DNA from: Escherichia virus TH47
Length of the DNA stretch: 64,000 bases
Strand: one strand, 5' to 3'
Sequence record: MT446416.1
The notes below the pieces were generated by a model that was not told the DNA's origin, searched no databases, and saw only the letters and a list, made by a program, of their open reading frames with translations. Positions 3,940-63,960 of this stretch are shown one piece after another; positions within the stretch are counted from its first letter, which is position 1, and each line of letters opens with the position of its first letter. Both the position numbers and the translations under genes were made by a program.

Positions 3940-4500
3940 CTATCTTTTTGAATATTTTTTAATGTATCTCATAATCGCTGGCGGTGTAGTATTATACCTT
4001 TCAGCTAGTATAATTGAGTTAGCATCATGTGAATATGGTTTATACAGTTGTATAACTTCGTTAATCTCTTTTTCAGTTAGTTTTGTCCTAACATGCCTTA
4101 TACCTTCACTCTCATACTTCACTATTTTTTTAATAGGCGTTGCGTCGTCATGTATTCCGGTATCGTGTGCGTGTATTATGTTTTCCTTTCCGGTTGACCA
4201 TTCCAAATTACTGTAATGATTATTACTTTTATTTCTATCCTTATGATTAACCTGGACTTTCTTTCTTTTTGTTTTTTGTGCCCATTCTATTTGTGCAGGT
4301 GTCGGAGGGGGTAGATAGTTGGATGCAACCAATCTTTGAACATACTCAAAATGTTTTGATTTGTCTTCTCTTACAAGCGTTAATCTATGATACCCATCAG
4401 GGCGAATTGTTGGAGAAAGAATATTACTACCATAACGCCTAACATCCCCATACTCACTAATTTCATAAAGGGGATTCTCTTTTAATTGTTTCCATTCCAT
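3940..4500 (-). CDS. HNH homing endonuclease (I-HmuI/I-TevIII-like)
   Basis: N-terminal MEWKxLK..YEISEYG..DGYHRLTL and HNH core VNHKDRNKSNNHYSNLEWSTGKEN resemble the I-HmuI family (from memory). Confidence 0.8.
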   Translation of the reverse strand: MEWKQLKENPLYEISEYGDVRRYGSNILSPTIRPDGYHRLTLVREDKSKHFEYVQRLVASNYLPPPTPAQIEWAQKTKRKKVQVNHKDRNKSNNHYSNLEWSTGKENIIHAHDTGIHDDATPIKKIVKYESEGIRHVRTKLTEKEINEVIQLYKPYSHDANSIILAERYNTTPPAIMRYIKKYSKR

Positions 4501-24655: not shown

Positions 24656-24966
24656 ATCCCTCGTTTACGCTTTTGATTGCGTCTAAATTCGGTTAGCCCA
24701 CGAATAATCGGTGGCATCAGACTACATAAAAAAATAACAGTTGTTGGCAATAACATGAAGTCAATCATTGCTGTATTAACAGGTGGATCACATACCAAAT
24801 AATACAAACACGTAATACTAATTATGGTTGACCCAATAAAAAGAATACAAAATTCTTTTATCTGTTTTTCAACATAATCAAACATCTTCAATACAAATAA
24901 AAATCCAACCCAACACATAATAAAATAGAATGAATACAACGTGTAAATCAATGTTACGATATCCAT
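24652..24966 (-). CDS. small polytopic membrane protein, family member 4
   Basis: 104 aa; ATGA overlap. Confidence 0.6.
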   Translation of the reverse strand: MDIVTLIYTLYSFYFIMCWVGFLFVLKMFDYVEKQIKEFCILFIGSTIISITCLYYLVCDPPVNTAMIDFMLLPTTVIFLCSLMPPIIRGLTEFRRNQKRKRGM

Positions 24967-25304
24967 TAGTACCTCGCATCAGGAACTTTAGAACGCAATT
25001 TATGAACGGCTGGGATCAACAACAAACTTACATATGCAATAGTTGAACCCCAATAGAATACTAATATAATTGGTTCACCATTAGAACGTAAACCTCTACT
25101 AATCATTGAGTAGTGAATAATAGGCATAAACATCGCCATAAAAAACCATGCGTGTAATTTTAATTGCAGCATGTTATCAGAGATGAATACTGAAATTGGT
25201 CGTTTAAAGAACCACATCAGAAAGTAGAACCCAGCACTAACAATATAGTACATAGTACTAACTTTCATATACCACGGCATTAAGTGTAAAAAATATTCCA
25301 TCAT
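24966..25304 (-). CDS. small polytopic membrane protein, family member 5
   Basis: 112 aa; W(F/Y)FK(R/K) motif after first helix. Confidence 0.6.
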   Translation of the reverse strand: MMEYFLHLMPWYMKVSTMYYIVSAGFYFLMWFFKRPISVFISDNMLQLKLHAWFFMAMFMPIIHYSMISRGLRSNGEPIILVFYWGSTIAYVSLLLIPAVHKLRSKVPDARY

Positions 25305-25648
25305 TCCTCCGGTATCTTGTTTCGAAGTTCAATCATAACACAACAAAGTTTAATGAACAAGTAAAAAACTACACATATCATACCTATGGTTCCATAAACG
25401 ACTGAAAAAGCTGGTAGTGCTTTTCCGGCGAGAACAGCCACAACACATGCTATAAATGTTGATGCAAACAATGATTGATTAATGAAAGAATTCATAAAAT
25501 CTTCACCATTACGCTTATAGAATTGTCGTTTAAAATACCATCCTAGAAACATAACTACCCAAAATGTTACATAACCTGTTAGAATAATCCCTGCAATTGA
25601 ATGTGCAACAGAACTACTCTTTAAAAACTCAAGATAAGATTCAAACAT
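25301..25648 (-). CDS. small polytopic membrane protein, family member 6
   Basis: 115 aa. Confidence 0.6.
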   Translation of the reverse strand: MFESYLEFLKSSSVAHSIAGIILTGYVTFWVVMFLGWYFKRQFYKRNGEDFMNSFINQSLFASTFIACVVAVLAGKALPAFSVVYGTIGMICVVFYLFIKLCCVMIELRNKIPEE

Positions 25649-25986
25649 TAGAAGTCCCCACGAATTTTTGCTCTACCATTAATGATGAGATTAAACAAGT
25701 ATATCAGCACCCAAATTAGTAATCCAAGGAATACAATATATTGTGATATTGAGTTCAACTGTGGATTAGCACAATAAATTAAGTGTGCGATAAGACCAAC
25801 AATTGCAAACATACCTTGGATAATAGTGAAAAGAAGTAGTGAAATGTTTCCATCAGGATACAGTTTGAAAACGATTTTCTTTTTAAAATACCATAGTACT
25901 ACAACTAGTGCATGATAAAAGAAAAAACCAAACAGATAAATCAAAGTAATACTAAGCATTGTATCTGAATTAAAAAACTCAAGCAT
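25648..25986 (-). CDS. small polytopic membrane protein, family member 7
   Basis: 112 aa; first gene behind promoter 26016-26044. Confidence 0.6.
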   Translation of the reverse strand: MLEFFNSDTMLSITLIYLFGFFFYHALVVVLWYFKKKIVFKLYPDGNISLLLFTIIQGMFAIVGLIAHLIYCANPQLNSISQYIVFLGLLIWVLIYLFNLIINGRAKIRGDF

Positions 25987-26053: not shown

Positions 26054-26824
26054 TTAAATTTTCTCAAGGAACAAGTTTTCGCACTGCTCTTCCCAATCAT
26101 ACGGGTTGTTGTTGTATACTGCTGAAATCAACAGAGGCATACGCAGTGAAGGAGCACGAAGTGCATCTTCATGTTTCAGCATCCAATTCAGGATTGCTTT
26201 GCTACCATTACTATTAACACCTTTAGTTGACAGGATGTTGGTCTTGTTCATTACGTTTTCAATGTGAATCATGATATCGCTTTTAGTCTGGATCTGTAAG
26301 TCAACATACACAGAGCGAGACATAAGAGCAGCATAGTGAGCAGACATTTTGGTTTTAGCTTTAGCATTCAGTGCTAAATCTTTGTTAGTAATGAATACGA
26401 TACGACCGTTAAAATCAAAGCTGTTAGGGATACCGTTGGTAGTTAAGTACTTAGAGCTAGTCATGTAAGACACAGTACGTTTACCGCTGTCCAGTACTGC
26501 TTTGAGCAGGTTCATACCGTCTTCTGAATCAAAGATGCTGTCCATATCATCCAGTACTAATACGTTAGTGCTGTGACGATTCTTGTACAGAACTTCATAC
26601 AGAGCAAGAGTAGTCATCTTACCACTGATAGTAACTACGTTCCATTCTGCTGCGTCATGAGCTTTCTGGAGGCGTTGTGACAGGGTGTAAGTCTTACCAA
26701 CACCAGGTGCACCGCTGACAACCATACTTTTTACAGTACTGCTATCATCGAGCAAACACTCAAGAGCAACCATCATGGAGTTGAAGTTTTTCTGGATTTG
26801 AATGCTACGTGCTTCTCTGGTCAT
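26054..26824 (-). CDS. AAA+/P-loop ATPase
   Basis: Walker A GAPGVGKT and Walker B VLVLDDMD; 256 aa. Confidence 0.75.
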   Translation of the reverse strand: MTREARSIQIQKNFNSMMVALECLLDDSSTVKSMVVSGAPGVGKTYTLSQRLQKAHDAAEWNVVTISGKMTTLALYEVLYKNRHSTNVLVLDDMDSIFDSEDGMNLLKAVLDSGKRTVSYMTSSKYLTTNGIPNSFDFNGRIVFITNKDLALNAKAKTKMSAHYAALMSRSVYVDLQIQTKSDIMIHIENVMNKTNILSTKGVNSNGSKAILNWMLKHEDALRAPSLRMPLLISAVYNNNPYDWEEQCENLFLEKI

Positions 26825-26852: not shown

Positions 26853-26885
26853 ATTATAGCAAAAAGGGCTGACCGAAGTCAACCC
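26853..26885 (-). promoter_or_regulatory. terminator-promoter cassette (copy b)
   Basis: GGGTTGACTTCGGTCAGCCC hairpin + T5, TTGACT(-35)-N18-TATAAT, then GAGGA RBS. Confidence 0.6.
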
Positions 26886-26895
26886 TTTTGTATTG

Positions 26896-28044
26896 TTATT
26901 TCTTGTCTAAGATTTGTACTTCACCATAAATCTGTACGATTTGCTTTTCTGGATTACCTTCGATAAGTTTTAGAAAAGATTTCAGTACTGCAACGTGGTC
27001 TTCATAGTATGCAATCCTAATGAAGTTGTAACCGTTGTTGATGGCGTACTCAGTTTTTATTGCGTCTTTTATCTTTCTTTGTTCAAAAGCACTTTTGCCG
27101 CCCCATAATTTGATTGATTGAAAATGTTGTACTCCATCATATTCCAGAAGGATTCGTTTACTTTCAATAAATCGATCAAAAGGTAATGGCTTTTTGAACT
27201 TACAATCAATGAAGCGTTTCTCTTTTATGGTATCATCTTCTAACATACCATCAATATCAACTAAATTCTTACTCTCACCTGATGAACAGGTAGGACATGA
27301 AGACTCAGATGATATATAGTTATGATATGATGGATAAAATGGGTTATTACAATCATTACACTGTAAATGTAATTTTGTTTTTGATGTTTCATAAACACCT
27401 CCCACAAATCCAATAAAGGTATTATTACAAACTGCGTTTCTTTTATCTATTTCATATTTGACTACTAGAATATTCAAACGAATCTTTTTTGCCGAGCTGT
27501 AATCACGACATTCAACACAATTATGACCATTAAGAAAATCATAAATGTTCTCACATAAACGAGTATGGTTGTTTTTACATTTGTACCAAAATTTAGATTT
27601 GAATTTTGTAGTAAATTCACCTTCAAATTTGATAAATGTAATAGATTCACGTTTACACTCTTTTTGTATTTCTTTTAATGCATCAGATTCAGATATTTTG
27701 ATAGTGTTTTGGTACTCTTTTCTTTTCTTCTTACCACATATCTGACATCCACCAGAGATAAGATAACTTTTCAGTGAACTTGTACATAAAGTGCTGCATG
27801 TTCCACATCTAAACAGAACTTTATTCTTTTCTAGTCCAAAAAATTGATTACTGTTTGATATCTGTAAGCCAAAAATAGTATCTTCTTTTTCAATGGCTTT
27901 TAGTTTAATTTCATCAATTCTAACGATAGTTTTTTTATTTTTTACAGGAACATTTTCTATTTTCATGTACTCAAATTTAGTACATAATTCTTCAATAATA
28001 TAAACTTTCTCACCATCTTCATTTAAATAGTACTTTTCAAACAT
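26896..28044 (-). CDS. zinc-ribbon-repeat protein with C-terminal PD-(D/E)xK-like (DUF559/Vsr-like) nuclease domain
   Basis: multiple CxxC pairs; C-terminal ...DCKF...LLEYDGVQHF...FIRIAY pattern. Confidence 0.55.
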   Translation of the reverse strand: MFEKYYLNEDGEKVYIIEELCTKFEYMKIENVPVKNKKTIVRIDEIKLKAIEKEDTIFGLQISNSNQFFGLEKNKVLFRCGTCSTLCTSSLKSYLISGGCQICGKKKRKEYQNTIKISESDALKEIQKECKRESITFIKFEGEFTTKFKSKFWYKCKNNHTRLCENIYDFLNGHNCVECRDYSSAKKIRLNILVVKYEIDKRNAVCNNTFIGFVGGVYETSKTKLHLQCNDCNNPFYPSYHNYISSESSCPTCSSGESKNLVDIDGMLEDDTIKEKRFIDCKFKKPLPFDRFIESKRILLEYDGVQHFQSIKLWGGKSAFEQRKIKDAIKTEYAINNGYNFIRIAYYEDHVAVLKSFLKLIEGNPEKQIVQIYGEVQILDKK

Positions 28045-28060
28045 TACTCAATACTCCTTT

Positions 28061-28273
28061 TCAGTACTGAACCCGTCCAGCACCATTAATCTTAGCCTGA
28101 ATCTTATCTTTTTCGACAAGACCTTCTTTGTAATCGATGGACGTATTATCGCACTGAATTACATCTAAGTCAAGTACTTCTTGTGTACTTAATGAAGTAT
28201 TGTCTGCAATTTGTTGTAAAGTAATGATATCAGTACCGAAGAATTCTGCTAAACGTATAAAAGATAATTTCAT
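28061..28273 (-). CDS. hypothetical protein (70 aa)
   Basis: ORF co-oriented and tightly spaced with downstream nuclease gene. Confidence 0.5.
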   Translation of the reverse strand: MKLSFIRLAEFFGTDIITLQQIADNTSLSTQEVLDLDVIQCDNTSIDYKEGLVEKDKIQAKINGAGRVQY

Positions 28274-28299
28274 GTGTTACCTCTTAAGTTGATGAAATA

Positions 28300-28331
28300 A
28301 TTATAGCAAAAAGGGCCGACCGAAGTCAACC
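28300..28331 (-). promoter_or_regulatory. terminator-promoter cassette (copy c)
   Basis: same hairpin and TATAAT. Confidence 0.6.
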
Positions 28332-29116
28332 ATGTTTGAAAGGATTTTTTAATGGTTTTAGTACTGTATGTATTCTGCTGTGTAGTTCTTCTTCCCACAA
28401 AACATTTACATTATAAACTAAATCATTGTAATCACTGTACTCAAATATAAAATCATACTTTTCATCAAAAGTATGAGAAATCAATTTCATTTTCATCAGT
28501 ACAATAGAACTTTTAAATTTATATGTTTCTTTTTCTTCTCCGGTTTTTGAGATTGGTATATTTTTTACAAATTCTTTGAATTCATCATCAGTCATAGTTT
28601 AACCATATATTATTTAACCAGTATTAGTCCCAATATAGTCACTCCATAAATTATATATATTGTTTTCAACACAATCATCATCGCTTAATTCTATCATTGA
28701 TGATATAAGTACTGATACGGTTTGTGTGTTCAAATCGGTATCGCGATGTTTCAACCACCATTTCAGGGTGAGGGTGAGTGTTCGTGCTGTGTTTGGATTA
28801 TTTGTAAATTTATATCTGGTGGTATCGAGAATCATTTTAAATCTTCTTTCATTTAATTATATAAACAAAGTACTCATGTAATTTTAATTACTTTTGTATA
28901 TTGAATCACATTGTCTACTCAATAGTTTATAGTATGCTTTACCACGAGGAAATAGTTTACGTGTATGTTCTCCTTTTCCCCACGGTCCTAAATATGTTTT
29001 ACGCGTGTCATGATTATTAAAGTTCTTTGATACAGTTGATTTTGTACCAATAGGATCTTTCTTACTAAAATAGATAGACATTATAAAGTTTTCTCTTTAC
29101 TAAGTTTATGTATTAA

Positions 29117-29136
29117 CGGACTGACCGAAGTCAACC
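29117..29136 (-). terminator. cassette hairpin (copy d, degenerate promoter)
   Basis: GGGTTGACTTCGGTCAGTCC downstream of denV stop. Confidence 0.5.
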
Positions 29137-29143
29137 CTTTCCT

Positions 29144-29659
29144 TTAATAATTATTCATTTCATCTTTGATTTGTTCTTCAATTTCGTCGAACATATCAGT
29201 ACTAGATTCTATATTACTACTTACGTCCTGCATATCTTTAACGTACTGTGGGCGTTCAACGTCAGTAAATTTATACCACTTAGGCTTCATCTGGAGCTTC
29301 TCAATCAAACGCTCACGAGACATTTTAATCTCTGACTCCGATGGTACGTAGTCATTACAAAACTCAGCAGGGAAGCCGCTAATGTCGTTTACTTCAGTGT
29401 TTTGAATCTTCATACCACGACGCAAACATTCATTAACAATATCAATATGACGCTTCTGTAAGTACAATAACTTGTTGTAGAAGAATGTTACATGACCTGA
29501 ACCTAACAGGTAAGTACTGTTAATTTTGAAATCACGGACTCGCTTACGTGCTTGAACATGTTTTTGTACAGCACCAAACACACGTGGGAGTTCACGATAT
29601 TCAGCCATCAGATGTTGGTCAGCAAGTTCTTTAACGTGTACTAAGTTAATGCGTGTCAT
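29144..29659 (-). CDS. denV: pyrimidine-dimer DNA glycosylase (endonuclease V) homolog
   Basis: N-terminal [35 protein letters not shown] closely matches T4 DenV as recalled; about 35-aa acidic C-terminal extension. Confidence 0.85.
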
Positions 29660-29687
29660 GTATTCATCCTCTCGTTTCGATGAAATG

Positions 29688-29719
29688 ATTATAGCAAAAA
29701 GGGCTGACCGAAGTCAACC
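29688..29719 (-). promoter_or_regulatory. terminator-promoter cassette (copy e)
   Basis: hairpin + TATAAT upstream of denV. Confidence 0.6.
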
Positions 29720-29728
29720 TTTTTCTTA

Positions 29729-31252
29729 TTATTGTTTTACCCCGCCCCACTTTTCATAGATTGCAATAATCTTATACAAGTTTGTGATGTTAGTTGTTTC
29801 CGTGTAACCATCTTTCATTTCATTTTTGGTAAGTACACCTTTACCAAAAATCCTCTTACACTCCTGTTCTGCTGACCTACAACTTTTGGGAGTGCTGAAA
29901 TGATAATACAACATTGAAGAAACTTTATATATACATTTATTGTCTTGGTGCTTCTGGCGGCGACCATGAACCTTTTCAATTCCATATTTCAATGCAATAG
30001 GTAACTCACCATCATAGATCACATGAATGTATGCAAATTGTTGATTATGATTAGAACATTCGGGGCAACCGGAACCACCAAGGTGAGCATTTGGAGTTAT
30101 TTTGAACTCACCATGTTCGCTACATTCAACCTTAACTAATTTATGTGCATTCACATAATTCGTTTTAGGATATGTGTACTTCCCATTATGTACTTTAGAT
30201 GCCTTTTCAATAAATTCAGGTGTACTAGAACGTTCACATCCTGAACATTTAGAACAACCATTTTTTTCATGTAGATGGTGTGTTGGTTGCTGCGTGAACA
30301 CACCATGTTCTTTACAAACAATCGATACTTTAGTTTTTAAGTTTTTATATTTAACTAAAGAATAATCATATTTGTCTCCATGTATTTCATGTGCTTTTTT
30401 GATGAACGTTTCGGTAGTTAACGCCATCTTTCCACTACACTCTAAACAACCATTGCCAGCCACATGTTTACTGGCAAGTTGCTCAAAATCACCATGTTCT
30501 GGACATGTAATTATAACTTTTCCACGTCCATTTATATAGATAGTTTTATCATATGAATATTTGTCACCGTGAACTTCTTTACATTTTTTGATGAAATCCG
30601 GGGTGTCTTTATATCTATACGTACCACTACATTTAGCACATTTAAAACCACTTAGGTGGTTTGCTGGGGTTTGTTCAAAATCACCATGTTCTTTGCATGT
30701 TATTGTAACTTTGGTTTTTGAGTTGATGTACACAACTTTATCGTATGTGTACTCAAAATTATGTTTAACATTTGCCTTCATGATAAAGTGCTCATTCGTA
30801 GAAACTCTTCCCAAGTGTACAATTGAACCGTCTTTATTCATCTTAGTGCATAAATTACATCCACGTTTTTTTCTTAAATGATCACTAACTCTTTTCTCAA
30901 AATCACCATGTTCTGGACATGTTATAATTACTCTAGAAGAATTAGAAACATCATCTTGTACCTTATCATAAAGGTACACATCACCAAAAATAGCACGAGA
31001 CTGTTCGATGAATTTAGCTTTACCCTTTCGAAAGTGTAGTCCATTTTTTGTATATCTACATTTTTTGCAGCCAGATGACCGTAAATGAGTTCCAGCAATT
31101 TGTTCGAACTCACCATGTTCTGGACATGTAATAATCACTGAGGTTCTTGAATTAACATAAACCACTTTAGTATAATCGTACTTAAAATTATGCAATTTAT
31201 TCGCTTGTTTTACAAACTCTTCTTTATTCATTGCGACTGGCATTGTATTCAT
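29729..31252 (-). CDS. zinc-ribbon-repeat protein with C-terminal GIY-YIG-superfamily (T5orf172-like) domain
   Basis: repeated ITCPEHGDFEQ...C..C modules; C-terminal AYIHVIYDG...LKYGIE...DGYTET. Confidence 0.55.
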   Translation of the reverse strand: MNTMPVAMNKEEFVKQANKLHNFKYDYTKVVYVNSRTSVIITCPEHGEFEQIAGTHLRSSGCKKCRYTKNGLHFRKGKAKFIEQSRAIFGDVYLYDKVQDDVSNSSRVIITCPEHGDFEKRVSDHLRKKRGCNLCTKMNKDGSIVHLGRVSTNEHFIMKANVKHNFEYTYDKVVYINSKTKVTITCKEHGDFEQTPANHLSGFKCAKCSGTYRYKDTPDFIKKCKEVHGDKYSYDKTIYINGRGKVIITCPEHGDFEQLASKHVAGNGCLECSGKMALTTETFIKKAHEIHGDKYDYSLVKYKNLKTKVSIVCKEHGVFTQQPTHHLHEKNGCSKCSGCERSSTPEFIEKASKVHNGKYTYPKTNYVNAHKLVKVECSEHGEFKITPNAHLGGSGCPECSNHNQQFAYIHVIYDGELPIALKYGIEKVHGRRQKHQDNKCIYKVSSMLYYHFSTPKSCRSAEQECKRIFGKGVLTKNEMKDGYTETTNITNLYKIIAIYEKWGGVKQ

Positions 31253-31272
31253 CCTCTCGTCTTGATGAAATA

Positions 31273-31305
31273 ATTATAGCAAAAAGGGCTGACCGAAGTC
31301 AACCC
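31273..31305 (-). promoter_or_regulatory. terminator-promoter cassette (copy f)
   Basis: same element. Confidence 0.6.
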
Positions 31306-31712
31306 TTTTTTCTTTCAATCAAACATAGTCTACCAGAATGTACCATGCGATGGTGATTAGAACAAAGAATCATACACTTTCGAATTTCATCTTTGATAGA
31401 TTCTCGACTTTTACTGAACATAGAACTTGGTGTATGTTCTTTGGTATTAGGATCAAGATGGTGAAAGTCTAAACATTCTGGATACTTCATCATACAAATA
31501 CTACAACCATAAAATGATTTAACTCTGGTCATGAAATCTTTATTTTTTCTTTTGATTTCTTCAAGTTTTTTGACCTCAGTTTTTTTATTTCTGGTTTTCT
31601 TACTGGTAATATTTCTACAATCGTTGCATGTATTTCTATGTTTCCCAGTATCACTTCTTATACCAAATTCACTAATGTTTTTTTCAATATTACATGTAAT
31701 ACACTTCTTCAT
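31299..31712 (-). CDS. HNH endonuclease (137 aa)
   Basis: CSICMM...CLDFHHLDPNTKE...CMILCSNHHRMVH; extra CxxC pairs. Confidence 0.7.
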   Translation of the reverse strand: MKKCITCNIEKNISEFGIRSDTGKHRNTCNDCRNITSKKTRNKKTEVKKLEEIKRKNKDFMTRVKSFYGCSICMMKYPECLDFHHLDPNTKEHTPSSMFSKSRESIKDEIRKCMILCSNHHRMVHSGRLCLIERKKG

Positions 31713-33555
31713 TGTTTAATCCATTTATTCAACAATACCCAACTTCACAATCTCATACCCGTCCAGATAGCCGTAGTAACACTCAGGTGTTTCATAAGAT
31801 GAACCATCATGGATGCCCTGGCATTGACTTTTGGAATTCTCAAGCAATCGTTGCAGTACTGATACGTCATCATGAACGTAATACAAGTTAGCATATAGGT
31901 CAGTTACAATACAGTACTCCAACATGTCAAATGTATCAATCGAAATTTCAACCTTAGCAAATCGTTTCTTTTCTTTATTACACAATGCGTACATATTAAT
32001 CTCCATAATCAAGTTTAACCAACTTACCACACAGATACCCAAAGTTTTCAGGCTTCGCATCTGAATAGAAGAAGTCAGTACTTAACTCTGAATTCAATGC
32101 TAAAGCACACAACTCCACCCAAAATAAACCCCTATGTTGTACTGGCTTACAACGTTTCTGTACAGTTACTAGTCCAGTACATGATGACCACAAAGTAGGA
32201 CAGATACCAGTATCACTACGCTTGGAGTACTGCATCCATCAGTCGATTACGAGTACGTAGTTTCATATAAGTTATCCTTATTTCAAAGAATCATAGTAAG
32301 CAGTGTCAAAGATTGGAGTCATAATAACATAGTCAATACGGTCAATGTAAGTTGAACTCCACATTTCTGGTTTGTCATAAAATTGACGCTCGCGTTCATT
32401 CATACGAGTCAGTACTTCTTCCAATTTACTACGTGAAGCCATCAATGTATTACGCGATCCATAAGTGAAGTACTCAGTCCATTGATATTCATATTCAGTA
32501 CTGATAGATTGAATAGTACCATCTTTGAAATGAGCTAAGGCATATCCTTTCTCTACAAAGTTATCAGGTGGAAGAACACCATCTGGATTAGTTTTCAATG
32601 CTTTGGTTAACTTTTCTTTAATTTCAGTTAACGTGCATACTGAACGAATGTTCTTCAGGTTTGATACTTGAAAATCACTGTACTTTCCAAAGAAAAATAC
32701 ACGCCAATCTTTAGGTTCATTATCAGATACGGTAATATTCGGATGATGGGCGAGTAAACGAAGAAGGCCAGCTTTGTGACCGTTAATGTAGATCTCATGG
32801 ATGTGGTTAGCAGTTTTCTTAAAAGTAATCATGACAATTCCTCGATTGTGGGGATGAGAAGTTCATCCCCTTGATAAACATTATACAGTACTGAATGAGT
32901 TTGTCAACTCAAAATAAATTCATTTCATGTGCGTATTGTGGTTCAAGATGCGATAAGTTTTTGAAGCTTTCTTTCAACTCAGCATCATCTACATACACCG
33001 TGCCTGGTACATTCCCCATAGTGAAACCTACCCACACAGTCATGTCACCAGTCCCTAAGCGTGGCATTGATAGCGAACCATCAGGTGAAACATCAAACGC
33101 TACACTGAAGTCATCAGTAACAACGTCATAACCATTTTCGAGAATAATACATCCACTATCTTTAAGCTTCTGAATGTGGATAGCAGCCTCTACAGCACGT
33201 TTGAAGTTATAGTAAGACTCTTTATCCTCAAACATTGATTGTTTAATCAGACGCTTGTTTAGCTCGGTTACTTTGTGCATTTGACGCATTACTTATCCAT
33301 CTCCAACAGTTGTAGAATTTCATAAGAGCCTGGTGGTGCTGGATTCCTGATCTCAGGGAATTGAGTACTTTTAGGATTACCACCAGCATTAAATTCATCA
33401 AGTAATGATTCGAGTTCATTCCTATCATGAACAACAAACACGCAATATCCAGTACCTTCTTCAAGAACAGTAGTTGAACCCGCACAATCCCATACTGTAT
33501 CAATACATAATAATTCTTTAGTGTTTTTGTTACGCAATGCAAACATATATGTCTC

Positions 33556-33924
33556 CTATCGATTCGGCATATTCTTTCGTAGTCGCAAGAGAAATTCAAC
33601 CACTGACCATGTTGAAATGAAGGTAATATAAGTTGCCAAGAATCCGGTAAGAATAAATGCAACCAGCGTACTACCATTTGGTCCATCTGCTTTAATACCA
33701 ATTATACCATCAACTACAGTGAAACATGTAGCCATTAGCGTGTAGCAGACGTACAACACAAAGAAGAACTCATTCTCCATTGAAGGGTAGAAACGGTTAA
33801 ACACTTTATAAAATTTAAAGTACAGTAGGATTATACCAACAAAGACATAAAATGTAAACAGGGTTGTTATAATATATGAGATTAGGTTCAAATTATACAT
33901 ATTAACGCTCCGGTAAATTATCAC
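33556..33924 (-). CDS. small polytopic membrane protein (family, second cluster)
   Basis: 122 aa; FKFYKVFNRFYP motif; C-terminal RLRKNMPNR. Confidence 0.6.
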   Translation of the reverse strand: MIIYRSVNMYNLNLISYIITTLFTFYVFVGIILLYFKFYKVFNRFYPSMENEFFFVLYVCYTLMATCFTVVDGIIGIKADGPNGSTLVAFILTGFLATYITFISTWSVVEFLLRLRKNMPNR

Positions 33925-34249
33925 GTAAGGTTTTAATTCGATTATACAATTTCACTGAAACATTACCAAATATACCATATCCAAGTACTAAAATGTATGC
34001 AATAAGCATAGTAATAATTACTATAGTGCCAAAACTATAATGTACACTACTGATACCCAATGTAGTTTCAACGATTATTTGGGAAAGAGAAAGAATCAAA
34101 AGTACAACTACAATAGGATGATTTGGATACATCCTATTAAATAGTGTTTTGTACTTGAAGAAGCAAAGCACTCCACCAAATAAGAAGTAAACAATGTAAA
34201 TGCAAGCAACAGCATAGGCAAACACGTTAGTGTAATAAATCATTATCAA
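33902..34249 (-). CDS. small polytopic membrane protein (family)
   Basis: 115 aa; FKYKTLFNRMYP; C-terminal LRDNLPER. Confidence 0.6.
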   Translation of the reverse strand: MIMIYYTNVFAYAVACIYIVYFLFGGVLCFFKYKTLFNRMYPNHPIVVVLLILSLSQIIVETTLGISSVHYSFGTIVIITMLIAYILVLGYGIFGNVSVKLYNRIKTLRDNLPER

Positions 34250-34252
34250 TCC

Positions 34253-34591
34253 TTATTTTTCAGGGATATTAGAACGCCATACATCAAGGCGATGGATCAG
34301 CTCAAAAAACAACCATACTGGAAAGAAAGATATCATAACACCAAGTGATAACCCGGTCAATACCGATACCAGATTTAATTCATCAGTACTATATCCACAT
34401 ATCAGTACTTCTAATATTCCCCACGTACACGCACAGAATACCAAGAATGAAATCGGTGCATCATAATAGATACGTTCATATAAAGTAGTGTATCGGAAGA
34501 ATGCAATAATGTAGCAAAACATGAAATATACCCACATCAATGACACTACATAGAATGACACTTTATTAATTAATTCAAAATTTTGTTCCAT
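34253..34591 (-). CDS. small polytopic membrane protein (family)
   Basis: 112 aa; FRYTTLYERIYY; C-terminal WRSNIPEK. Confidence 0.6.
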   Translation of the reverse strand: MEQNFELINKVSFYVVSLMWVYFMFCYIIAFFRYTTLYERIYYDAPISFLVFCACTWGILEVLICGYSTDELNLVSVLTGLSLGVMISFFPVWLFFELIHRLDVWRSNIPEK

Positions 34592-34885
34592 TTTATACCT
34601 TCAAATATTCAGAAAATAATGCATGAGCTTCTTCTATATTCTTGAGATAATACATATGATATAGATTTGGTTGACCATTTTTATAACTTAAATCGAAGTA
34701 CTTTAAACTATGCACCTTCATGACAAAAACAAATAATGACTTAAAACCAATCTCACCGTACTTAATAAACAGTTCATCTAAATGAATGTAACTCTTAGTT
34801 TCAGATAATTCCTTCACATCAGCTTCAATTTCTTGTAAGCGAAGTTTACCGATTAAGTTTTCAAATGAACGCATGATGTTGTTCC

Positions 34886-35299
34886 TTATGCTGGTACACA
34901 ATTTTTTATAATGAATACACGTTTCATGAATGAACTTTCATATACGTACTTCAGTTTACCATTTTCACGCATACGATGAAACACATCTTTACCACTAGTA
35001 CTCCAGGTTGAACCAGTCTCTGTATCAACATTGTTCATAACACCAGATGTTACGTTCACCCCGTACTTGAAGCTAAAGGTACTACCTTCTTCTACCAGAG
35101 GGATTGGTGTACTACGTTCATGTTCCAGTACAAGTTTACTGCCGATGATGTTGTACGAAGTTAGATTGCATTTTAAAACACCCATCTCTTGTGCAGTTGG
35201 GTAATTCTTCTCAAACAAATCAGATACTTCATTTGCATAACAAACTGAACTAATCATCAGAAGTAATGAACTGATAGAACGGAAAATAACTTTTAACAT
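34886..35299 (-). CDS. secreted protein (137 aa)
   Basis: signal-peptide-like N-terminus; cassette copy upstream. Confidence 0.6.
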   Translation of the reverse strand: MLKVIFRSISSLLLMISSVCYANEVSDLFEKNYPTAQEMGVLKCNLTSYNIIGSKLVLEHERSTPIPLVEEGSTFSFKYGVNVTSGVMNNVDTETGSTWSTSGKDVFHRMRENGKLKYVYESSFMKRVFIIKNCVPA

Positions 35300-35325
35300 G
35301 TTTGCCTCCAGTAGTTGATGAAATG

Positions 35326-35358
35326 ATTATAGCAAAAAGGGCCGACCGAAGTCAACCC
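35326..35358 (-). promoter_or_regulatory. terminator-promoter cassette (copy g)
   Basis: same element. Confidence 0.6.
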
Positions 35359-35363
35359 TTTTT

Positions 35364-35976
35364 TTATATTTTACATATTATGTCTGGTTTTGGCTTTTCA
35401 TTCTTTGGCTTTTCAAATGGATTTGGCTTAGGGGACTTTTTATCTTTGTCATCTTTAGCTTTCTTTTTGTTTTCTTTTTTATCCGATTTGTCAGCTTTGT
35501 CTTTCTTATCCTTGGAATCTTTGTCAGCTTTAGATTGTGGTTCCTCACATACAGCAGCTTTTGGCTCCGGCATATCACATGAGTTATCCACAGGTTTAAT
35601 GAACTCTTTACAGTTGTAGAAGTATAAACTTTCATTGGTAGTAAGATTGTGGAATCTAAAGGTATTTTCACCATTAGTATATACTTTCTTAGTACTCTCA
35701 ATATCATTACACATTGCAACCGTGTCACCGGAATTCATGCTCGACACCTAGTACATCAGATTTACGTTCAGATAGTATTCCAGACGTATATCGATCTTTG
35801 TTATCAAATGCATTGAACCCTATAGTTTTATTATTGTCATGTACTAATCCTCTAGTGTAAGACTTAGTATAGAACTCACCGTTTCTAAACTCCTGTCTAG
35901 CAATGGAGCACTGGTATTCAGTACTATAAGCTATATCAGTAAACAATACAAGTGAAAATAAAACATATTTAAACAT
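35364..35976 (-). pseudogene. split gene (two frames) paralogous to 34886..35299; C-terminal Lys-rich low-complexity tail
   Basis: ORFs 35725..35976 (signal peptide) and 35364..35747 overlap by 23 nt in +1 frame; together they resemble the single 34886 protein. Confidence 0.45.
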
Positions 35977-36022
35977 TGCATTACCTCTTATAAAAACCCT
36001 CTACAATATTTACAAAAAAAAA

Positions 36023-36040
36023 GGTTGACCGAAGTCAACC
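36023..36040 (-). terminator. cassette hairpin (copy h)
   Basis: perfect GGTTGAC-CGAA-GTCAACC palindrome with 9-nt T-run on minus strand. Confidence 0.6.
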
Positions 36041-36050
36041 TTTTAAATGT

Positions 36051-37580
36051 TTATTTTTGATACTTGCTCATGATATCTTTTTCCCAAGAAGTTACGTTAC
36101 CATTGTCGTAATCCTTGAATGAGTTATCAAGTGTAGTTAGTGCATACTCATATGCTTCTGGTGATTCGATGTCAACATCATCTGCACCATTGACTAAATC
36201 AGACCAAGCCTTTTGAAGTTTACGAGCATTATTACCAACATTATTTTTAATCCAACTAATGTTTCTGTTGATACTTTTACTATCAGCCCCGGCTTTTTTA
36301 CCAATCTCTGATATCCACATCATTAGCTTTTGAAGTTCATGAATTGAGTTATCGTTCATTTCACGATCTTTAGAAAGTTCTGCTTCCATACCATCGGAAC
36401 CAGTACTGTCAGATGAACCAACGTCAATTCCATTTTTAGCTAATAGTTTACCAAGTTCAAAGAATGCAGCTTCAGCAGGGAAGTCATAACCTTTCTCTTT
36501 GTAGTTATTCCATGCACTATCAAACTCGTCAACAAAACGGTTAGCATAATCTGGATTTTTAACTAATGCTTTATATACTGCCATTGCATGTTCAAAACCT
36601 TCTTTATCTGACCCAAACTCTTCCATCTCAGGACGATGAATGTATCCATCCATATCAACGGTATCAGGTAGTTCTTCTTGCTCAGGCTCAACATCTTTCT
36701 GTTCAACTGCACCTTCTTCATCTTTACGTAGTAGATATCCATCAGGTGTCACTTTCTCACCATGTTCTGCTTCATACTTTTTCATGGTATTGAATGCAGC
36801 ATCCATAGCTGTTACGAAGCGACTTTTCTCACCTTGTACATAAGATTTAAGTGCACTATTAACAGCGTCAGATACGAGCTTAACCTTATCGTCTTTACCT
36901 TCTAAACGGTTTTCAAGTTTAGCCAGTACATTCTTGACTTGCTGGGCATTAGCACGGTCTGCTTTACCAATACTATCAAAAGTTTTAAGAATACCATCAA
37001 GACTTGCTTCACCCTGTTCAGGTTCTTTGGAATCTTCTTTGTGTGTACCTTCAAGTGCACGCATGATAGTACTGAATACTTCAGTAGGTTCAGTGCTCTT
37101 ATTACCTTTCATTGCATCAAGTACAGCTTGTGCTTTACCTTTGAGTTCTTCTTTAGGAACTGCCTGTAGTGCTTTGACAATACCCTGAATCAACTGTGGT
37201 TTGTTAGCAAATATCTTACCTAAGTTATCAGAAAGTTCTTTGACAGGGTTAGATGCTTTTGATTGTGCAGGTGCTTCTGGTTCTACTTCTGGACGTTCTT
37301 GTGCATTATCCATTGCAGCTAGTTGTTCTTTTTGATGAGCATTAAGTAATCCCAAAGCATTCATGTATTTTAATTTTTCATGTGGATTCATTTTGGAAGT
37401 ATCTGTTACTTCACCTGGCTTTGCATTTTCTACACCTTGTGCACCAGTGCTTTGGTTACGACTCATTTTTCTACCACTATGATAGTTTCCAGCAGGGCGG
37501 TACTCCGACTTGCGTTTTGAATGTTGAACAATTGCACCATTTCTGTGCTTCATATCACCATTATTATAATCACTAGGCAT
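36051..37580 (-). CDS. large hydrophilic protein (509 aa)
   Basis: long ORF, basic N-terminus, acidic and coiled-coil-like body; no recognised domain. Confidence 0.65.
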   Translation of the reverse strand: MPSDYNNGDMKHRNGAIVQHSKRKSEYRPAGNYHSGRKMSRNQSTGAQGVENAKPGEVTDTSKMNPHEKLKYMNALGLLNAHQKEQLAAMDNAQERPEVEPEAPAQSKASNPVKELSDNLGKIFANKPQLIQGIVKALQAVPKEELKGKAQAVLDAMKGNKSTEPTEVFSTIMRALEGTHKEDSKEPEQGEASLDGILKTFDSIGKADRANAQQVKNVLAKLENRLEGKDDKVKLVSDAVNSALKSYVQGEKSRFVTAMDAAFNTMKKYEAEHGEKVTPDGYLLRKDEEGAVEQKDVEPEQEELPDTVDMDGYIHRPEMEEFGSDKEGFEHAMAVYKALVKNPDYANRFVDEFDSAWNNYKEKGYDFPAEAAFFELGKLLAKNGIDVGSSDSTGSDGMEAELSKDREMNDNSIHELQKLMMWISEIGKKAGADSKSINRNISWIKNNVGNNARKLQKAWSDLVNGADDVDIESPEAYEYALTTLDNSFKDYDNGNVTSWEKDIMSKYQK

Positions 37581-37623
37581 CGTGTGCCCTCCTTTAACAT
37601 AAAATATATTATTATTTATTATA

Positions 37624-38808
37624 CTACTTAATACTGTTCACATCAAGTTCTTGTACATTATATGATTCAATTATTTTTATTAATTTTTCATATTCCGATT
37701 CATTGATTGTTTCAGTATACCCGTCCAAATAATTTATTTTATCAATAACTTTTCTTTTTATGCCACTCATATGTTTAATAAAATATTCAAGTTCTTTGAT
37801 TAAAATACCATCAGCACTGTAATATGTTTTATATTTTTCAGTTCTAAATAAGTTTTTATTATATTGTTCAAATCTGTATATATAGTTGTTTGTTATACCA
37901 AATTTATAATATAACCTACCATTACCTAGTACTCGATGTATATAAAAATACCCAGGTTTACTTGGGTCATATCCACCTCGACTACAACTTGGACAACCTC
38001 TTTTCTTTTGAACAATATTTTGATATCGAGTTGTCCATTCAGGATGTTCACATTCTGAACATTTTAATGTAATTAATGTATGTACATTTTTATATATAAA
38101 TGGTTTATAAGTATATCCGTTAGATGTGCAAATTTCATTAAGTCTTTTAATTGATTCATCTTGTGAAAGACAAAGTTTTCTAGCTGTGGATTGATTTCCA
38201 CATTTTGCACATCCATTACCTTGATATACAAATTTATCATAACTTAAACTAAATTCATCATGGTCGGGATTGCAACATTTTAATGTAATTTTAGTTCTAT
38301 TATTTTTATATTCAAAAGGTTTATAAGTATATCCAGTAGTATTACATATGTTATTTACATTTAATTCTGCTTGTTGTTGGGTTAATTTTAACTTTCCACC
38401 ACATTCAATACATCCATTTTTCTTATTAACTAAAGAATTATAATTAGTTTCATGTGGTTTATGGGAGGCAACTCCACAATGAATTATTATTTTTGTTCCT
38501 ATAGCACCTTTAAAATCAAAGGGTTCATAAGTATATCCTTTTAATTCACATATTTCATGAACTTTAGTTCTTGCTGTTTTTTCTTTTAAAGAATTTCTTC
38601 CTTTACATTCTGGACACCCAGTTCTTTTATAAATGAATTTACTAAATTTACATTTCCATTCTTCATGTTTAAAGTTATCACATTTAAGTTCTAATATTGT
38701 TTTAGTGTTAATATAAGTGAAAGGTTTATATGTATAATTTTGTTCTAAACATCTGTTCGCTACTATTTTTTCAGCTTCTTCTTGTGTTAATCGTATCCCA
38801 CTAGCCAT
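37624..38808 (-). CDS. zinc-ribbon-repeat protein with C-terminal GIY-YIG-superfamily (T5orf172-like) domain
   Basis: four C..H..C..C modules; C-terminal GYFYIHRV...YKFGIT...DGYTETINESEY. Confidence 0.55.
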   Translation of the reverse strand: MASGIRLTQEEAEKIVANRCLEQNYTYKPFTYINTKTILELKCDNFKHEEWKCKFSKFIYKRTGCPECKGRNSLKEKTARTKVHEICELKGYTYEPFDFKGAIGTKIIIHCGVASHKPHETNYNSLVNKKNGCIECGGKLKLTQQQAELNVNNICNTTGYTYKPFEYKNNRTKITLKCCNPDHDEFSLSYDKFVYQGNGCAKCGNQSTARKLCLSQDESIKRLNEICTSNGYTYKPFIYKNVHTLITLKCSECEHPEWTTRYQNIVQKKRGCPSCSRGGYDPSKPGYFYIHRVLGNGRLYYKFGITNNYIYRFEQYNKNLFRTEKYKTYYSADGILIKELEYFIKHMSGIKRKVIDKINYLDGYTETINESEYEKLIKIIESYNVQELDVNSIK

Positions 38809-38852
38809 GAAATATAATCCTTGAATCTTTGTTATTTCATATATTTACTATA

Positions 38853-38880
38853 TAAAAAAAAGGCTGACCGAAGTCAACCC
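38853..38880 (-). promoter_or_regulatory. terminator-promoter cassette (copy i)
   Basis: same hairpin. Confidence 0.55.
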
Positions 38881-48714: not shown

Positions 48715-49509
48715 TTAAATTACATACGGTTTATAGTAATGAATCTCGTTTGCGATTGCAGTGAAGACTTTATTATTAAATCTTTCACCATAATCACGAA
48801 GTGATTCACCTTCTTCGCTTTCAATGAAGTAATTATATACTGGTAGACGTGCGTTGTCAACACCTATAAATGATTTCATGTAAATTTGTACTAAACGATT
48901 CATTCCTTCATTTAAGCATTGCACCTCAAAGTGCTTGATACCTTTGTCTAAATGTTTGAATGCATTAATGATACCACGTTTAAAATCACGCTGCATAGTA
49001 CTGAATAAATTCTCAGGGAACACGGTAATAGGTGACATTGATTTAAGAATGTATGTATCTTTGGCATTCTTAATGTACTCAATAAAGCAGTAGTTAACGT
49101 CCGGCTCAATTGAACGATCCGCGTTATGATACCAGTGTTTAAACTCACTGTACTCAGCAAACTTATGCTGGCGTAATGCGTTACAATCCTCACACAGTGC
49201 AGTTATGTTCTCTTTATCATTACCGCCCTGGAGACAGTCCAGTACATTATGGTCTAACGTCATGCGTACAAGGCGTTTACCTTTAAGTACATAAGGTCTG
49301 AATTTATAACGGTCTTTAGTACTGTGCTTATGTAAAGTGAATACCACATTGGATTCACCACAACAATCACATTTAAAGCCATCACGTGACATTACATGAA
49401 TGAGTTTTCGAGTATTTGGGCCGAACTCAGATTTAGTAATGTTGCCGACAATTTCTGATGGGTCGTAGTATTTTGAATTCCGGCGAATCAATTCATCTAT
49501 AGTGCTCAT
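48715..49509 (-). CDS. HNH endonuclease-domain protein (264 aa)
   Basis: CDCCGESN...DHNVLDCLQGGNDKENITALCEDCN HNH core. Confidence 0.7.
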   Translation of the reverse strand: MSTIDELIRRNSKYYDPSEIVGNITKSEFGPNTRKLIHVMSRDGFKCDCCGESNVVFTLHKHSTKDRYKFRPYVLKGKRLVRMTLDHNVLDCLQGGNDKENITALCEDCNALRQHKFAEYSEFKHWYHNADRSIEPDVNYCFIEYIKNAKDTYILKSMSPITVFPENLFSTMQRDFKRGIINAFKHLDKGIKHFEVQCLNEGMNRLVQIYMKSFIGVDNARLPVYNYFIESEEGESLRDYGERFNNKVFTAIANEIHYYKPYVI

Positions 49510-50552: not shown

Positions 50553-51197
50553 CTAAATTTTACTTAATGACAAAGTAATACGTCCATTAAGTAAATCATC
50601 GTTTAAAACATCAATTCTACGTTGTAAACCTTTTATTACACCATCTGACACACTATTATTATATTTTTTAATAATATCAGAAAGATGTTCTTTTTTGGCT
50701 AATTGCCATTTTGCATGAGCTTCTTCAGGTGTGGGAAATGCACCCAAATGATATTTTTTCTTATTTTTGTAAATTTGTGCATAATATGGATTTTTGTATT
50801 CAAAACTCATATTTTTTTTAGGTATATGATAACAAACACCAAGTGGTTGATTTTTATTATTTTTGTCAATGATACACATGTTTATTTCATTTGGTACAAA
50901 TGAACACGTTTCAGGAGAATACATTTTTTTATTACCGTCGATTAAATCTTTATCTAATTCATAACCATCTTTGTAATTTGATATATACCATTCTTTAAAT
51001 TTAGAGTATGTTTTCCATTCATCACATATAATAACTCCTATATATGTTTTATGAGTTTCTTGATACTTTTCAGAATAACATCGTTTTATCATATCTTTCC
51101 ATGTATAATAAACTTTACTATAAACACTTTTTTTTGTGGAATCACCTTTAACATCATTGATTCCAAAACCATATACCAATTTCATATTAAATTCCAA
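50553..51197 (-). CDS. putative freestanding homing-endonuclease-like protein
   Basis: N-terminal YGFGINDV...YYTWKDMIKRCYS...ICDEW resembles N-terminal domains of phage HNH-type endonucleases (memory only). Confidence 0.4.
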   Translation of the reverse strand: MEFNMKLVYGFGINDVKGDSTKKSVYSKVYYTWKDMIKRCYSEKYQETHKTYIGVIICDEWKTYSKFKEWYISNYKDGYELDKDLIDGNKKMYSPETCSFVPNEINMCIIDKNNKNQPLGVCYHIPKKNMSFEYKNPYYAQIYKNKKKYHLGAFPTPEEAHAKWQLAKKEHLSDIIKKYNNSVSDGVIKGLQRRIDVLNDDLLNGRITLSLSKI

Positions 51198-63552: not shown

Positions 63553-63960
63553 TTATTTACGATTCCTTGCGGAGTTCTTGTTCCTCGCTCTGAATGTTGG
63601 TGTCATCGAATGACAATTAGGGCAAAGGATTTTTAAATTCGGTAGGTCATTATTTGTAGCATCACCATCAATGTGCTCAACTTCTGTCAGTACTGCACCA
63701 TCAACTGGGTGACGTTTATCCCATCCACATTCTTCACATGCAGTTCCGCGTGTTTCATGTAGATATCTTCTCACAAATGGGCATAACTGTATGGTAATAC
63801 CTTTATATCCAGGATGTTCACCGTTAAGCCATTTATCAACTTTCTGTTGATATTGTAGCTCTTGTTGACATGCAACACTACAATATTTTGTTTGGCCCTT
63901 TCGAACCAATTCAATTTTACAACATGTACAATAACGTTTTTCTTTCATATAGTTCTCCAT
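63553..63960 (-). CDS. HNH endonuclease (135 aa)
   Basis: HIDGDATNNDLPNLKILCPNCH core plus N-terminal CxxC pairs. Confidence 0.7.
   Translation of the reverse strand: MENYMKEKRYCTCCKIELVRKGQTKYCSVACQQELQYQQKVDKWLNGEHPGYKGITIQLCPFVRRYLHETRGTACEECGWDKRHPVDGAVLTEVEHIDGDATNNDLPNLKILCPNCHSMTPTFRARNKNSARNRK

Follow-up and report, generated by a model that had tools for sequence, protein, structure and literature searches.

Several classes of phage genes combine zinc-finger repeats with a nuclease domain. Among homing endonuclease genes (HEGs) with a T5orf172 nuclease domain, 200 of 229 (87%) carry CapR, DUF723 or DUF4397/4379 fingers, often repeated; the repeats recombine, and boundaries of genetic exchange coincide with these genes (Barth et al. 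2023, PMC10448857). A further group of HEGs, reported in Nucleic Acids Research in 2025, encodes an EDxHD/Vsr-like nuclease preceded by three to five CapR/DUF4379/DUF723-like domains, and has thousands of unannotated relatives (PMC12350094). In CapR, four cysteines are needed for sequence-specific DNA binding (Netter et al. 2021, PMC8096241). Phage T4 harbors 15 endonuclease genes, or 11% of its coding potential, a load termed exceptional, and co-conversion tracts of variable length are known beside HEGs (Edgell et al. 2010, PMC2988022). In T4-type phages, terminator/promoter cassettes named promoter-early stem-loops (PeSLs) mark sites where open reading frames (ORFs) are inserted, deleted or replaced (PMC2839356, PMC4122927); they mediate modular shuffling and can release mini-circles (Arbiol et al. 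2010, PMC2839356; Comeau et al. 2014, PMC4122927). Here, a stretch of 64,000 nucleotides (nt) from Escherichia virus TH47 (MT446416.1), referred to as the window, was analyzed for three zinc-finger nuclease-like genes, ORF1, ORF2 and ORF3. With a probability of roughly three in four, they are free-standing HEGs in the variable region of a 121Q/RaK2-type jumbo coliphage.

All three ORFs, first pointed out in an earlier note on this DNA, exist on the minus strand, as do nearly all genes of the window. ORF1 (26896..28044; 382 amino acids, aa) appears to consist of three CapR/DUF4379-like zinc-finger modules and a Vsr-like PD-(D/E)xK domain. ORF2 (29729..31252; 507 aa, probably 504) has six DUF723/DUF4379/CapR-like modules and ORF3 (37624..38808; 394 aa) four CapR modules, each array being followed by a predicted GIY-YIG domain of the T5orf172 type. 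The start of ORF2 is probably at 31243 (MPVAMNK..., giving 504 aa), because this second ATG stands at a normal distance after a Shine-Dalgarno sequence and because P0050, an NCBI protein of 504 aa that is 100% identical to ORF2, begins there. A 13-kb query around the locus matched Escherichia jumbo phages of the 121Q/PBECO4 group (Asteriusvirus and relatives) at 88–94% identity, with no more than 57% of the query covered by any one record.

A regular expression (C-x(1-4)-[CH]...C-x2-C) identified exactly 13 modules, three in ORF1, six in ORF2 and four in ORF3. The repeats are therefore real, as the earlier note had said, while its count of three to five per protein was too low for ORF2. A profile built from the 13 modules re-found the same 13 and nothing further in a six-frame translation of the window. 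The modules are ~50 aa in size, and all have four zinc ligands, in two pairs ~16–26 residues apart. The ORF1 array spans aa 54–253 (27286..27885, minus strand), its modules ending in C80..C103, C156..C179 and C229..C253. That of ORF2 spans aa 17–399 (30056..31204, minus strand), with six modules of the form CxEH...GCxxC and six stretches matching phrog_4605, and that of ORF3 spans aa 17–275 (37984..38760, minus strand), where Pfam CapR was matched in three stretches. Pfam scores above cut-off were obtained for ORF3 with CapR (PF21817; 59.1 bits, cut-off 24.2) and DUF4379 (35.1, cut-off 24.5), for ORF2 with DUF723 (33.8, cut-off 20.9), DUF4379 (39, cut-off 24.5) and Zn_ribbon_HMPTM (47.6, cut-off 27), and for ORF1 with DUF4379 (26.2, cut-off 24.5). 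BLASTP between the arrays linked ORF2 to ORF3 (E = 9e-23) and ORF1 to ORF3 (E = 6e-12). A chance cysteine pattern is ruled out by these curated-model matches and by the links among the three arrays. The arrays are predicted zinc- and DNA-binding modules of the CapR/DUF723/DUF4379 type, both kinds of binding being established for CapR itself. For the ORF2 finger module by itself, databases hold over 7,600 relatives.

A single Pfam scan was not sensitive enough to assign the C-termini; because direct scans gave no nuclease match above cut-off, sets of homologues and structure models were used. For ORF2 (aa 395–507; 29732..30070, minus strand) and ORF3 (aa 271–394; 37627..37998, minus strand), 16 homologues including both proteins were aligned after trimming to the C-terminal 110–130 residues. 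Y289, K302, G304, I305, R312, E341, G363 and E366 (ORF3 numbering) were invariant, and these columns would represent catalytic residues of the I-TevI/Slx1 type. In separate scans of the 16 homologues, 10 matched T5orf172 (PF10544; best E = 2.1e-10), seven MUG113 (best E = 5.5e-13) and four GIY-YIG, in agreement with the T5orf172-like C-termini proposed earlier. A profile from which ORF2, ORF3 and their closest kin had been left out gave scores of 132 bits for ORF3 and 45 bits for ORF2. Searching PDB sequences with the GIY profile returned almost nothing (a spurious MAPKAP1 match at E = 0.017 and UPF0213 at E = 0.42). Modelled with AlphaFold2, the ORF3 domain (mean predicted local distance difference test score, pLDDT, 92.4) shows the order beta-beta-alpha-beta-alpha, in keeping with the GIY-YIG fold of a three-stranded sheet and flanking helices, and its first three Foldseek ranks were all Slx1 chains. 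ORF2 was linked to the modelled ORF3 by homology, including a BLASTP match between the C-termini. Given the homologue matches, the leave-out profile, the ORF3 model and the Slx1 ranking, both C-termini are assigned to the T5orf172 branch of the GIY-YIG fold and are predicted nucleases. Relatives of ORF3 were found by tblastn in 295 phage records (Vibrio, Escherichia, Aeromonas, Klebsiella and others).

In ORF1, the C-terminal domain (aa 250–382; 26899..27297, minus strand) was delimited by alignment, profiles and a structure model. D290, E301, D303, G304, H307, D327, K330 and R343 are invariant across 22 homologues, of which 11 matched Pfam DUF5889 and seven DUF559, with further matches to DUF7255, DUF2726 and PvuRts1I_N (a Vsr-like N-domain). 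A profile of the five most distant homologues scored ORF1 at 101 bits. The ORF1-domain profile recovered only AbaSI (Vsr-like domain) from PDB sequences, weakly (E = 0.033). The AlphaFold2 model (pLDDT 91.6) had as its best Foldseek matches RAP-domain mitoribosomal proteins (E = 0.02–0.09) and E. coli Vsr (1vsr, probability 0.90, E = 0.06; 1cw0, template modelling score 0.53), followed by McrC, XisH, OkrAI and R2 endonuclease, all of which we take to be restriction-endonuclease-like folds. I-Bth0305I (3R3P) was recovered by neither the ORF1 profile search nor Foldseek. D290 and H307 of ORF1 are 17 residues apart, as are D196 and H213 of I-Bth0305I, and the corresponding spacing in Vsr is 18; judged by this spacing, the ORF1 residues are likely equivalents of the Vsr/I-Bth0305I active-site residues. 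The homologue families, the model and the Vsr/restriction-endonuclease-like matches agree with the PD-(D/E)xK, DUF559-like C-terminus of the earlier note and support a Vsr/DUF559-like PD-(D/E)xK domain, a predicted nuclease. None of the three C-termini was assigned to a non-nuclease fold by the domain and fold searches, the outcome that the earlier note had named as a refutation.

Relatives of ORF1 occur in 148 phage records by tblastn (Staphylococcus, Streptococcus, Lactococcus, Escherichia and others), and many of them carry the wrong label 'HNH endonuclease'. Across Asteriusvirus paralogues with differing N-terminal parts, the last ~60 residues of ORF1 (...NNGYNFIRIAYYEDH...KQIVQIYGEVQILDKK) hardly vary; paralogues may have exchanged modules, or the tail may be conserved for its function. 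A stretch of 140 nt at the 3' end of the gene (26921-27061) shares 91% identity with the corresponding end of EJP2 gene 481, a paralogue not otherwise detected by megablast. This was the only match when ORF1, ORF2 and ORF3 were searched by megablast against 50,697 phage records.

In their N-terminal tandem fingers and C-terminal T5orf172-type GIY-YIG domain, ORF2 and ORF3 resemble HEGs of the ICP1 gp165/gp174 type. Like T5orf172 HEGs in general, they are free-standing, intergenic and sporadic, lie at boundaries of genetic exchange, and belong to a gene type with varying repeat number (2, 4 or 6). They differ from the named family in scoring below the Pfam T5orf172 threshold, and from the described members in their carrier, a 121Q/RaK2-type jumbo coliphage, and in being framed by a terminator/promoter cassette. 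Moreover, the first ligand pair of the window fingers is usually C-x2-4-H instead of CxxC, and the second is CxxC instead of CxC. ORF1 resembles the EDxHD group, with three fingers of ~50–60 aa distantly related to CapR/DUF4379/DUF723 and a C-terminal Vsr-like domain of ~130 aa. However, it is free-standing, whereas genes of that group are encoded in group I or group II introns, and it has the extra conserved C-terminal tail (...KQIVQIYGEVQILDKK). I-Bth0305I, in contrast to ORF1, carries NUMOD/helix-turn-helix motifs and no zinc fingers. T4 seg (GIY-YIG) and mob (HNH) genes are likewise intergenic HEGs between conserved genes, with co-conversion of flanking markers of the kind read here beside ORF3, and a cleavage site in the neighboring conserved gene would be expected in both cases. 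Their DNA binding relies on NUMOD/helix-turn-helix motifs, whereas the window genes have finger arrays and one Vsr-like nuclease, as predicted here from sequence.

The window was compared by blastn with its relatives fEgEco12, WPEC3 and 121Q. All three genes are absent from fEgEco12, whose flanking sequences are 97–99% identical to the window. ORF1 and four small ORFs form a 2.2-kb island (26889..29114), in place of which the ATPase gene of fEgEco12 leads directly to denV; the flanks of the island are 99.4% and 97.7% identical to fEgEco12, and the two alignments meet in a 26-nt overlap that lies within the cassette described below. The ATPase gene of the window (26054-26824) encodes a 256-aa P-loop protein, and denV (29144-29659) a pyrimidine-dimer glycosylase. 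The ORF2 insertion covers 29728..31243, and fEgEco12 passes there directly from an HNH gene to denV. Alignments of its two flanks overlap by 71 nt in fEgEco12, a stretch that comprises the denV terminator, promoter, 5' untranslated region and Shine-Dalgarno sequence and that occurs twice in the window; the two hairpin copies around ORF2 are 1,585 nt apart, equal to the ORF2 coding sequence plus one cassette. At the third site, window positions 37310-38858 replace 1.1 kb of small ORFs in fEgEco12. Another insertion or deletion of the variable region lies at 32231-32238, where ~560 nt of fEgEco12 (genes g567 and g566) are missing.

In other relatives these sites hold related genes, different endonuclease genes or no endonuclease gene. 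An ORF1-family gene is located directly upstream of the ATPase gene in JP4, and in EJP2 one lies in the ATPase neighborhood, with three small ORFs between it and the ATPase-like gene. ORF3-type genes occupy the ORF3 site in RaK2, in UB and in L004, a RaK2-like metagenomic record. The UB version (L007 3501-4274) encodes 257 aa with two finger modules, a size that an in-frame deletion between two repeats, as known for ICP1 gp174, could explain. In 121Q, gp221 combines a different N-terminus with a GIY-type domain. WPEC3 has at the corresponding site a 516-aa protein related to ORF2 (CDS125, L001 2747-4297), with a GIY-type domain and six finger-like repeats, each of which lacks the Cys/His ligands (CIIDPVYGEFWQ...GNPxR); its fingers may still fold in the absence of zinc, or the protein may be degenerating. 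In the metagenomic record L011, an ORF2-type gene (62% aa identity) with cassettes on both sides lies upstream of the virion-gene orthologue. Because this corresponds to the ORF3 site and not to the denV site, the ORF2-type unit is found at two loci.

The gene next to ORF3 (36051-37580, minus strand; 509 aa) encodes a virion structural protein, by annotation of its homologues, and is chimeric. Over the first 50 alignment columns the protein is 89% identical to RaK2 gp260 and to RaK2-like L004, and 35% identical to fEgEco12, WPEC3 and 121Q. The relation is reversed within the next 100 columns, later 50-column blocks being mostly 88–100% identical to fEgEco12/WPEC3 and 11–40% to RaK2. Thus, the 5' end of the gene (37310..37580, minus strand) is of RaK2 type and the rest of 121Q/fEgEco12 type, and the former is read as a co-conversion tract attached to ORF3. 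Both RaK2 and L004 carry an ORF3 homologue (64% by BLASTP in both) directly upstream of their virion gene, with the hairpin on both sides of the two-gene unit. From this shared arrangement and the RaK2-type start it follows that ORF3 was acquired together with the first 70–100 virion-gene codons from a donor with a RaK2-type allele. The exchanged segment ends on the left in the cassette at 38862 and on the right in a block, NPVKELSDNLGKIFANKPQLIQGIV, that is conserved in all lineages. In the metagenomic record L012 (1299-1493), whose ORF3 is 96% identical, the virion gene has the same foreign start, and the switch back to the fEgEco12 type occurs ~40 codons earlier, at ...AKPGEV/KSTENMT. The two crossover points resemble the variable-length co-conversion tracts left by homing. 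The ORF3 copies of the window and L012 differ by 14 synonymous and 15 non-synonymous changes (ratio of non-synonymous to synonymous rates, dN/dS, 0.24). The spacer between ORF3 and the virion gene (37581-37623) contains TATAATAAATA, which resembles ATAAATA, a motif proposed as the late promoter of structural genes in the related phages CBB and GAP32 (PMC5259590), and transcription of the virion gene from a late promoter of its own is probable.

The insertion sites share a hairpin, GGYTGACTTCGGTCARCC, with 11 copies in the window (at 1020, 26867, 28314, 29119, 29702, 31287, 35340, 36023, 38862, 42458 and 51255) and none in shuffled sequence; eight of the 11 fall within 26.8–38.9 kb. On the coding strand the cassette reads AAAAAGGGTTGACTTCGGTCAGCCCTTTTTGCTATAATnATTTCATC...GAGGA..ATG. 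The hairpin has a G+C-rich stem of 7–8 pairs and a TTCG loop followed by a T-run (RNA folding energy -13.1 kcal/mol, z = -3.2). A predicted promoter, TTGACT-18-TATAAT with an extended TG, matches the consensus at 11 of 12 positions in five copies, its -35 hexamer lying inside the hairpin. Cassettes are found directly 3' of ORF2 and upstream of denV (29688..29725, minus strand; hairpin 29702-29719, T-run and overlapping TTGACT-18-TATAAT), and directly 5' of ORF2 (31273..31310, minus strand), the latter a duplicate of the denV cassette including its 5' untranslated region and Shine-Dalgarno sequence. Others are located directly 3' of ORF1 and upstream of the ATPase gene (26853..26890, minus strand), and upstream of a two-gene unit of a 70-aa ORF (28061-28273) and ORF1 (28300..28337, minus strand). 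A hairpin directly 5' of ORF3 (38862..38879, minus strand) forms the left boundary of the segment in which the window and fEgEco12 differ, and one 3' of the virion gene (36019..36044, minus strand) closes the unit of ORF3 and the structural gene, which is arranged alike in RaK2. The earlier claim that each gene is bounded by the cassette holds on both sides for ORF2, whereas ORF1 adjoins a cassette directly only at its 3' end and ORF3 only at its 5' end; the 5' cassette of ORF1 lies beyond the 70-aa ORF, and the 3' cassette of ORF3 beyond the virion gene. In all, four of the six gene ends touch a cassette, which is more than expected against the whole window (P ~7e-4).

A role of the cassette as the specific terminal repeat of a mobile element carrying a nuclease was rejected: the cassette also flanks denV, the virion gene and small ORFs, it contains ordinary promoter and terminator signals, and the adjacency is not above expectation in the cassette-dense local region (P ~0.13). 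It is a general, putative terminator/promoter module of the variable region and not specific to ORF1–ORF3. In this respect it resembles PeSLs: both are composites of a stem-loop terminator and a strong sigma-70-like promoter (here as judged by sequence), concentrated in a variable region, with insertions, deletions and replacements between close relatives ending inside the cassette and with single genes between two copies. It differs from PeSLs in belonging to the 121Q/RaK2 jumbo clade, in the -35 hexamer within the hairpin, in an 18-nt hairpin identical across genera, and in a cargo that includes large HEGs where that of PeSLs consists of small ORFans. Exact hairpin copies are present in RaK2, UB, 121Q, WPEC3, fEgEco12 and metagenomic loci. 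In RaK2, a member of another genus, the hairpin is matched exactly (L008 3456-3473 and 6461-6478) although the adjacent proteins are only ~55–65% identical, which suggests either strong constraint or continuing homogenization.

ORF1–ORF3 are not the only nuclease-type genes of the window. Four or five HNH genes had been proposed, of which two pass Pfam cut-offs (3940-4500, with HNH_3 and NUMOD4; 63553-63960), and two are HNH genes by PHROGs with weak Pfam support: 48715-49509 and 31299-31712 (minus strand), the latter adjoining ORF2 and absent from 121Q. The fifth, 50553-51197, matches PHROG 953 'HNH endonuclease' (3.5e-74) and gave no Pfam HNH match. Its motif by eye is LDKDLIDGN...N, with the first His missing, followed by an AP2-like region. 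This gene, which has a cassette copy immediately upstream (51255), may encode an inactive endonuclease. Together, ORF1–ORF3 and the five HNH genes occupy 6,681 nt, or 10.4% of the window, so that the high density of nuclease-type genes noted earlier holds for the window and comes near the 11% of T4. Close to the nuclease genes there are also two runs of three tandem paralogous ORFs for small membrane proteins of ~112–122 aa each (24966-25986 and 33556-34591).

If ORF1–ORF3 are HEGs, each protein would read DNA through its tandem array of CapR/DUF723/DUF4379-type fingers and cut it with its C-terminal nuclease, Vsr-like PD-(D/E)xK in ORF1 and T5orf172-type GIY-YIG in ORF2 and ORF3. In cells infected by both the carrier and a related phage, the allele without the HEG would be cut by the enzyme close to the insertion site, and repair from the HEG-carrying genome would copy in the gene along with flanking sequence. 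Each gene is part of a unit delimited by the PeSL-like cassette of hairpin-terminator and sigma-70-type promoter, which would supply expression signals and possibly also short homology, allowing gene-plus-cassette units to recombine into other cassette sites. While DNA cleavage, target sites and present-day homing of ORF1–ORF3 are what we infer, the domain identities, the intact conserved residues, the insertion pattern, the duplicated cassette at ORF2, the chimera at ORF3 and the gene type found at two loci come from this analysis itself. Presence and absence in close relatives and the co-conversion-like chimera support the selfish character that the earlier note had ascribed to these genes.

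Several observations weigh against homing. As to the nuclease assignments, whole ORF2 and ORF3 or their isolated C-termini gave no match to Pfam T5orf172 or GIY-YIG at E-values up to 10, ORF1 reached 17.2 bits on DUF559, below the cut-off of 20.6, and Foldseek E-values were weak, both for the Slx1 chains (0.6–1.5) and, although the matches agree, for ORF1 against PDB (best 0.02–0.06). No co-conversion tract was seen beside ORF1 or ORF2, where differences from the HEG-less fEgEco12 are spread evenly over flanks of 97–99% identity. Since the insertion end-points fall inside the cassette, plain homologous recombination without any nuclease would give the same picture. Finally, a relative with ~72–76% nucleotide identity (L009/L010) has an ORF1 homologue (73% aa identity) directly upstream of the ATPase gene, and the ORF3 homologue of RaK2 (56.5% identity by tblastn, 64% by BLASTP) stands beside a virion gene that is 55% identical. 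As the homologues of ORF1 and ORF3 thus share locus and degree of divergence with their neighbors, some of the patchy distribution could go back to ancient vertical inheritance followed by repeated losses.

An alternative of low probability is that the genes derive from HEGs but were domesticated, no longer home, and now act as sequence-specific DNA-binding regulators or as nucleases against competing phages or satellites. A retained function could be the meaning of the position of ORF3-type genes directly upstream of a virion structural gene in two genera, and the dN/dS of 0.24 indicates constraint on the ORF3 protein. I-TevI represses its own promoter, a parallel for a regulatory role. There are precedents for both fates: CapR is a finger domain turned repressor that binds a -35 element, the CapR of PLE repressing the capsid operon (PMC8096241), and Odn of ICP1 is a T5orf172 nuclease re-targeted against a satellite (PMC10448857). 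However, very close relatives lack all three genes, which are therefore dispensable, and the nuclease residues are intact, whereas in CapR the DNA-binding part alone is left. Homing, moreover, predicts just such a chimera as the virion gene, with crossovers that differ between two genomes.

About equally improbable is that ORF1–ORF3 are passive cargo, moved only by homologous recombination between cassettes in the manner of PeSLs, with nucleases that are irrelevant or decaying. The ORF2 insertion, a coding sequence plus one cassette between direct repeats, is what a circle integrating at the resident cassette would leave; the ORF2-type gene of L011 also lies between cassettes at another locus, small ORFs unrelated to nucleases are gained and lost at the same cassettes, and ORF1 and ORF2 lack a co-conversion tract. 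Yet the right boundary of the ORF3 exchange lies within the virion gene and not in a cassette, and it differs between two genomes. Furthermore, five of the 11 cassettes touch a nuclease-type gene, though by our own count such genes make up only eight of ~130 ORFs, the reading frames are intact with their conserved residues retained, and ORF3 is under purifying selection.

The same association, together with the presence of the ORF2-type unit at two cassette sites, led to the idea that nuclease and cassette work as a pair, the enzyme binding or cutting at or beside cassettes, or just inside the neighboring gene, and so driving recombination of the unit. Both observations are associations only, and we regard this idea as very doubtful. 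If true, the pair would constitute a self-mobilizing gene-cassette system in jumbo phages and would resolve a point that Arbiol et al. 2010 (PMC2839356) had left undecided, whether a dedicated helper protein that recognizes the stem-loop takes part in cassette recombination. Least probable is that the C-termini are not nucleases and the proteins merely multi-zinc-finger binders of DNA or RNA, for which the missing direct Pfam nuclease matches and weak Foldseek E-values could be cited, but against which stand homologues that tie the domains to T5orf172/MUG113/GIY-YIG and DUF559/DUF5889/PvuRts1I_N, two high-confidence models with nuclease folds as top Foldseek matches, and conserved columns at the expected catalytic positions.

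Read as HEGs, ORF1–ORF3 are further members of two described families, and as gene families they are ordinary, because both architectures were already described between 2021 and 2025. What is added here are the repeat counts, the start of ORF2, structural support for both folds, the chimeric virion gene with its two crossovers, the cassette-plus-gene unit at two loci, and a PeSL-like cassette conserved across genera of the 121Q/RaK2 clade. The naming of ORF1 relatives, often labelled 'HNH endonuclease' in databases, is corrected. The locus also offers three concrete candidate pairs of enzyme and target, and programmable-looking finger arrays on small nuclease domains could interest nuclease engineers. 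For phage biology, it extends the PeSL idea from T4-type phages to 121Q/RaK2 jumbo phages and places two mechanisms of mosaicism side by side, an endonuclease-linked exchange of part of a virion gene across genus-level lineages and the shuffling of cassettes.

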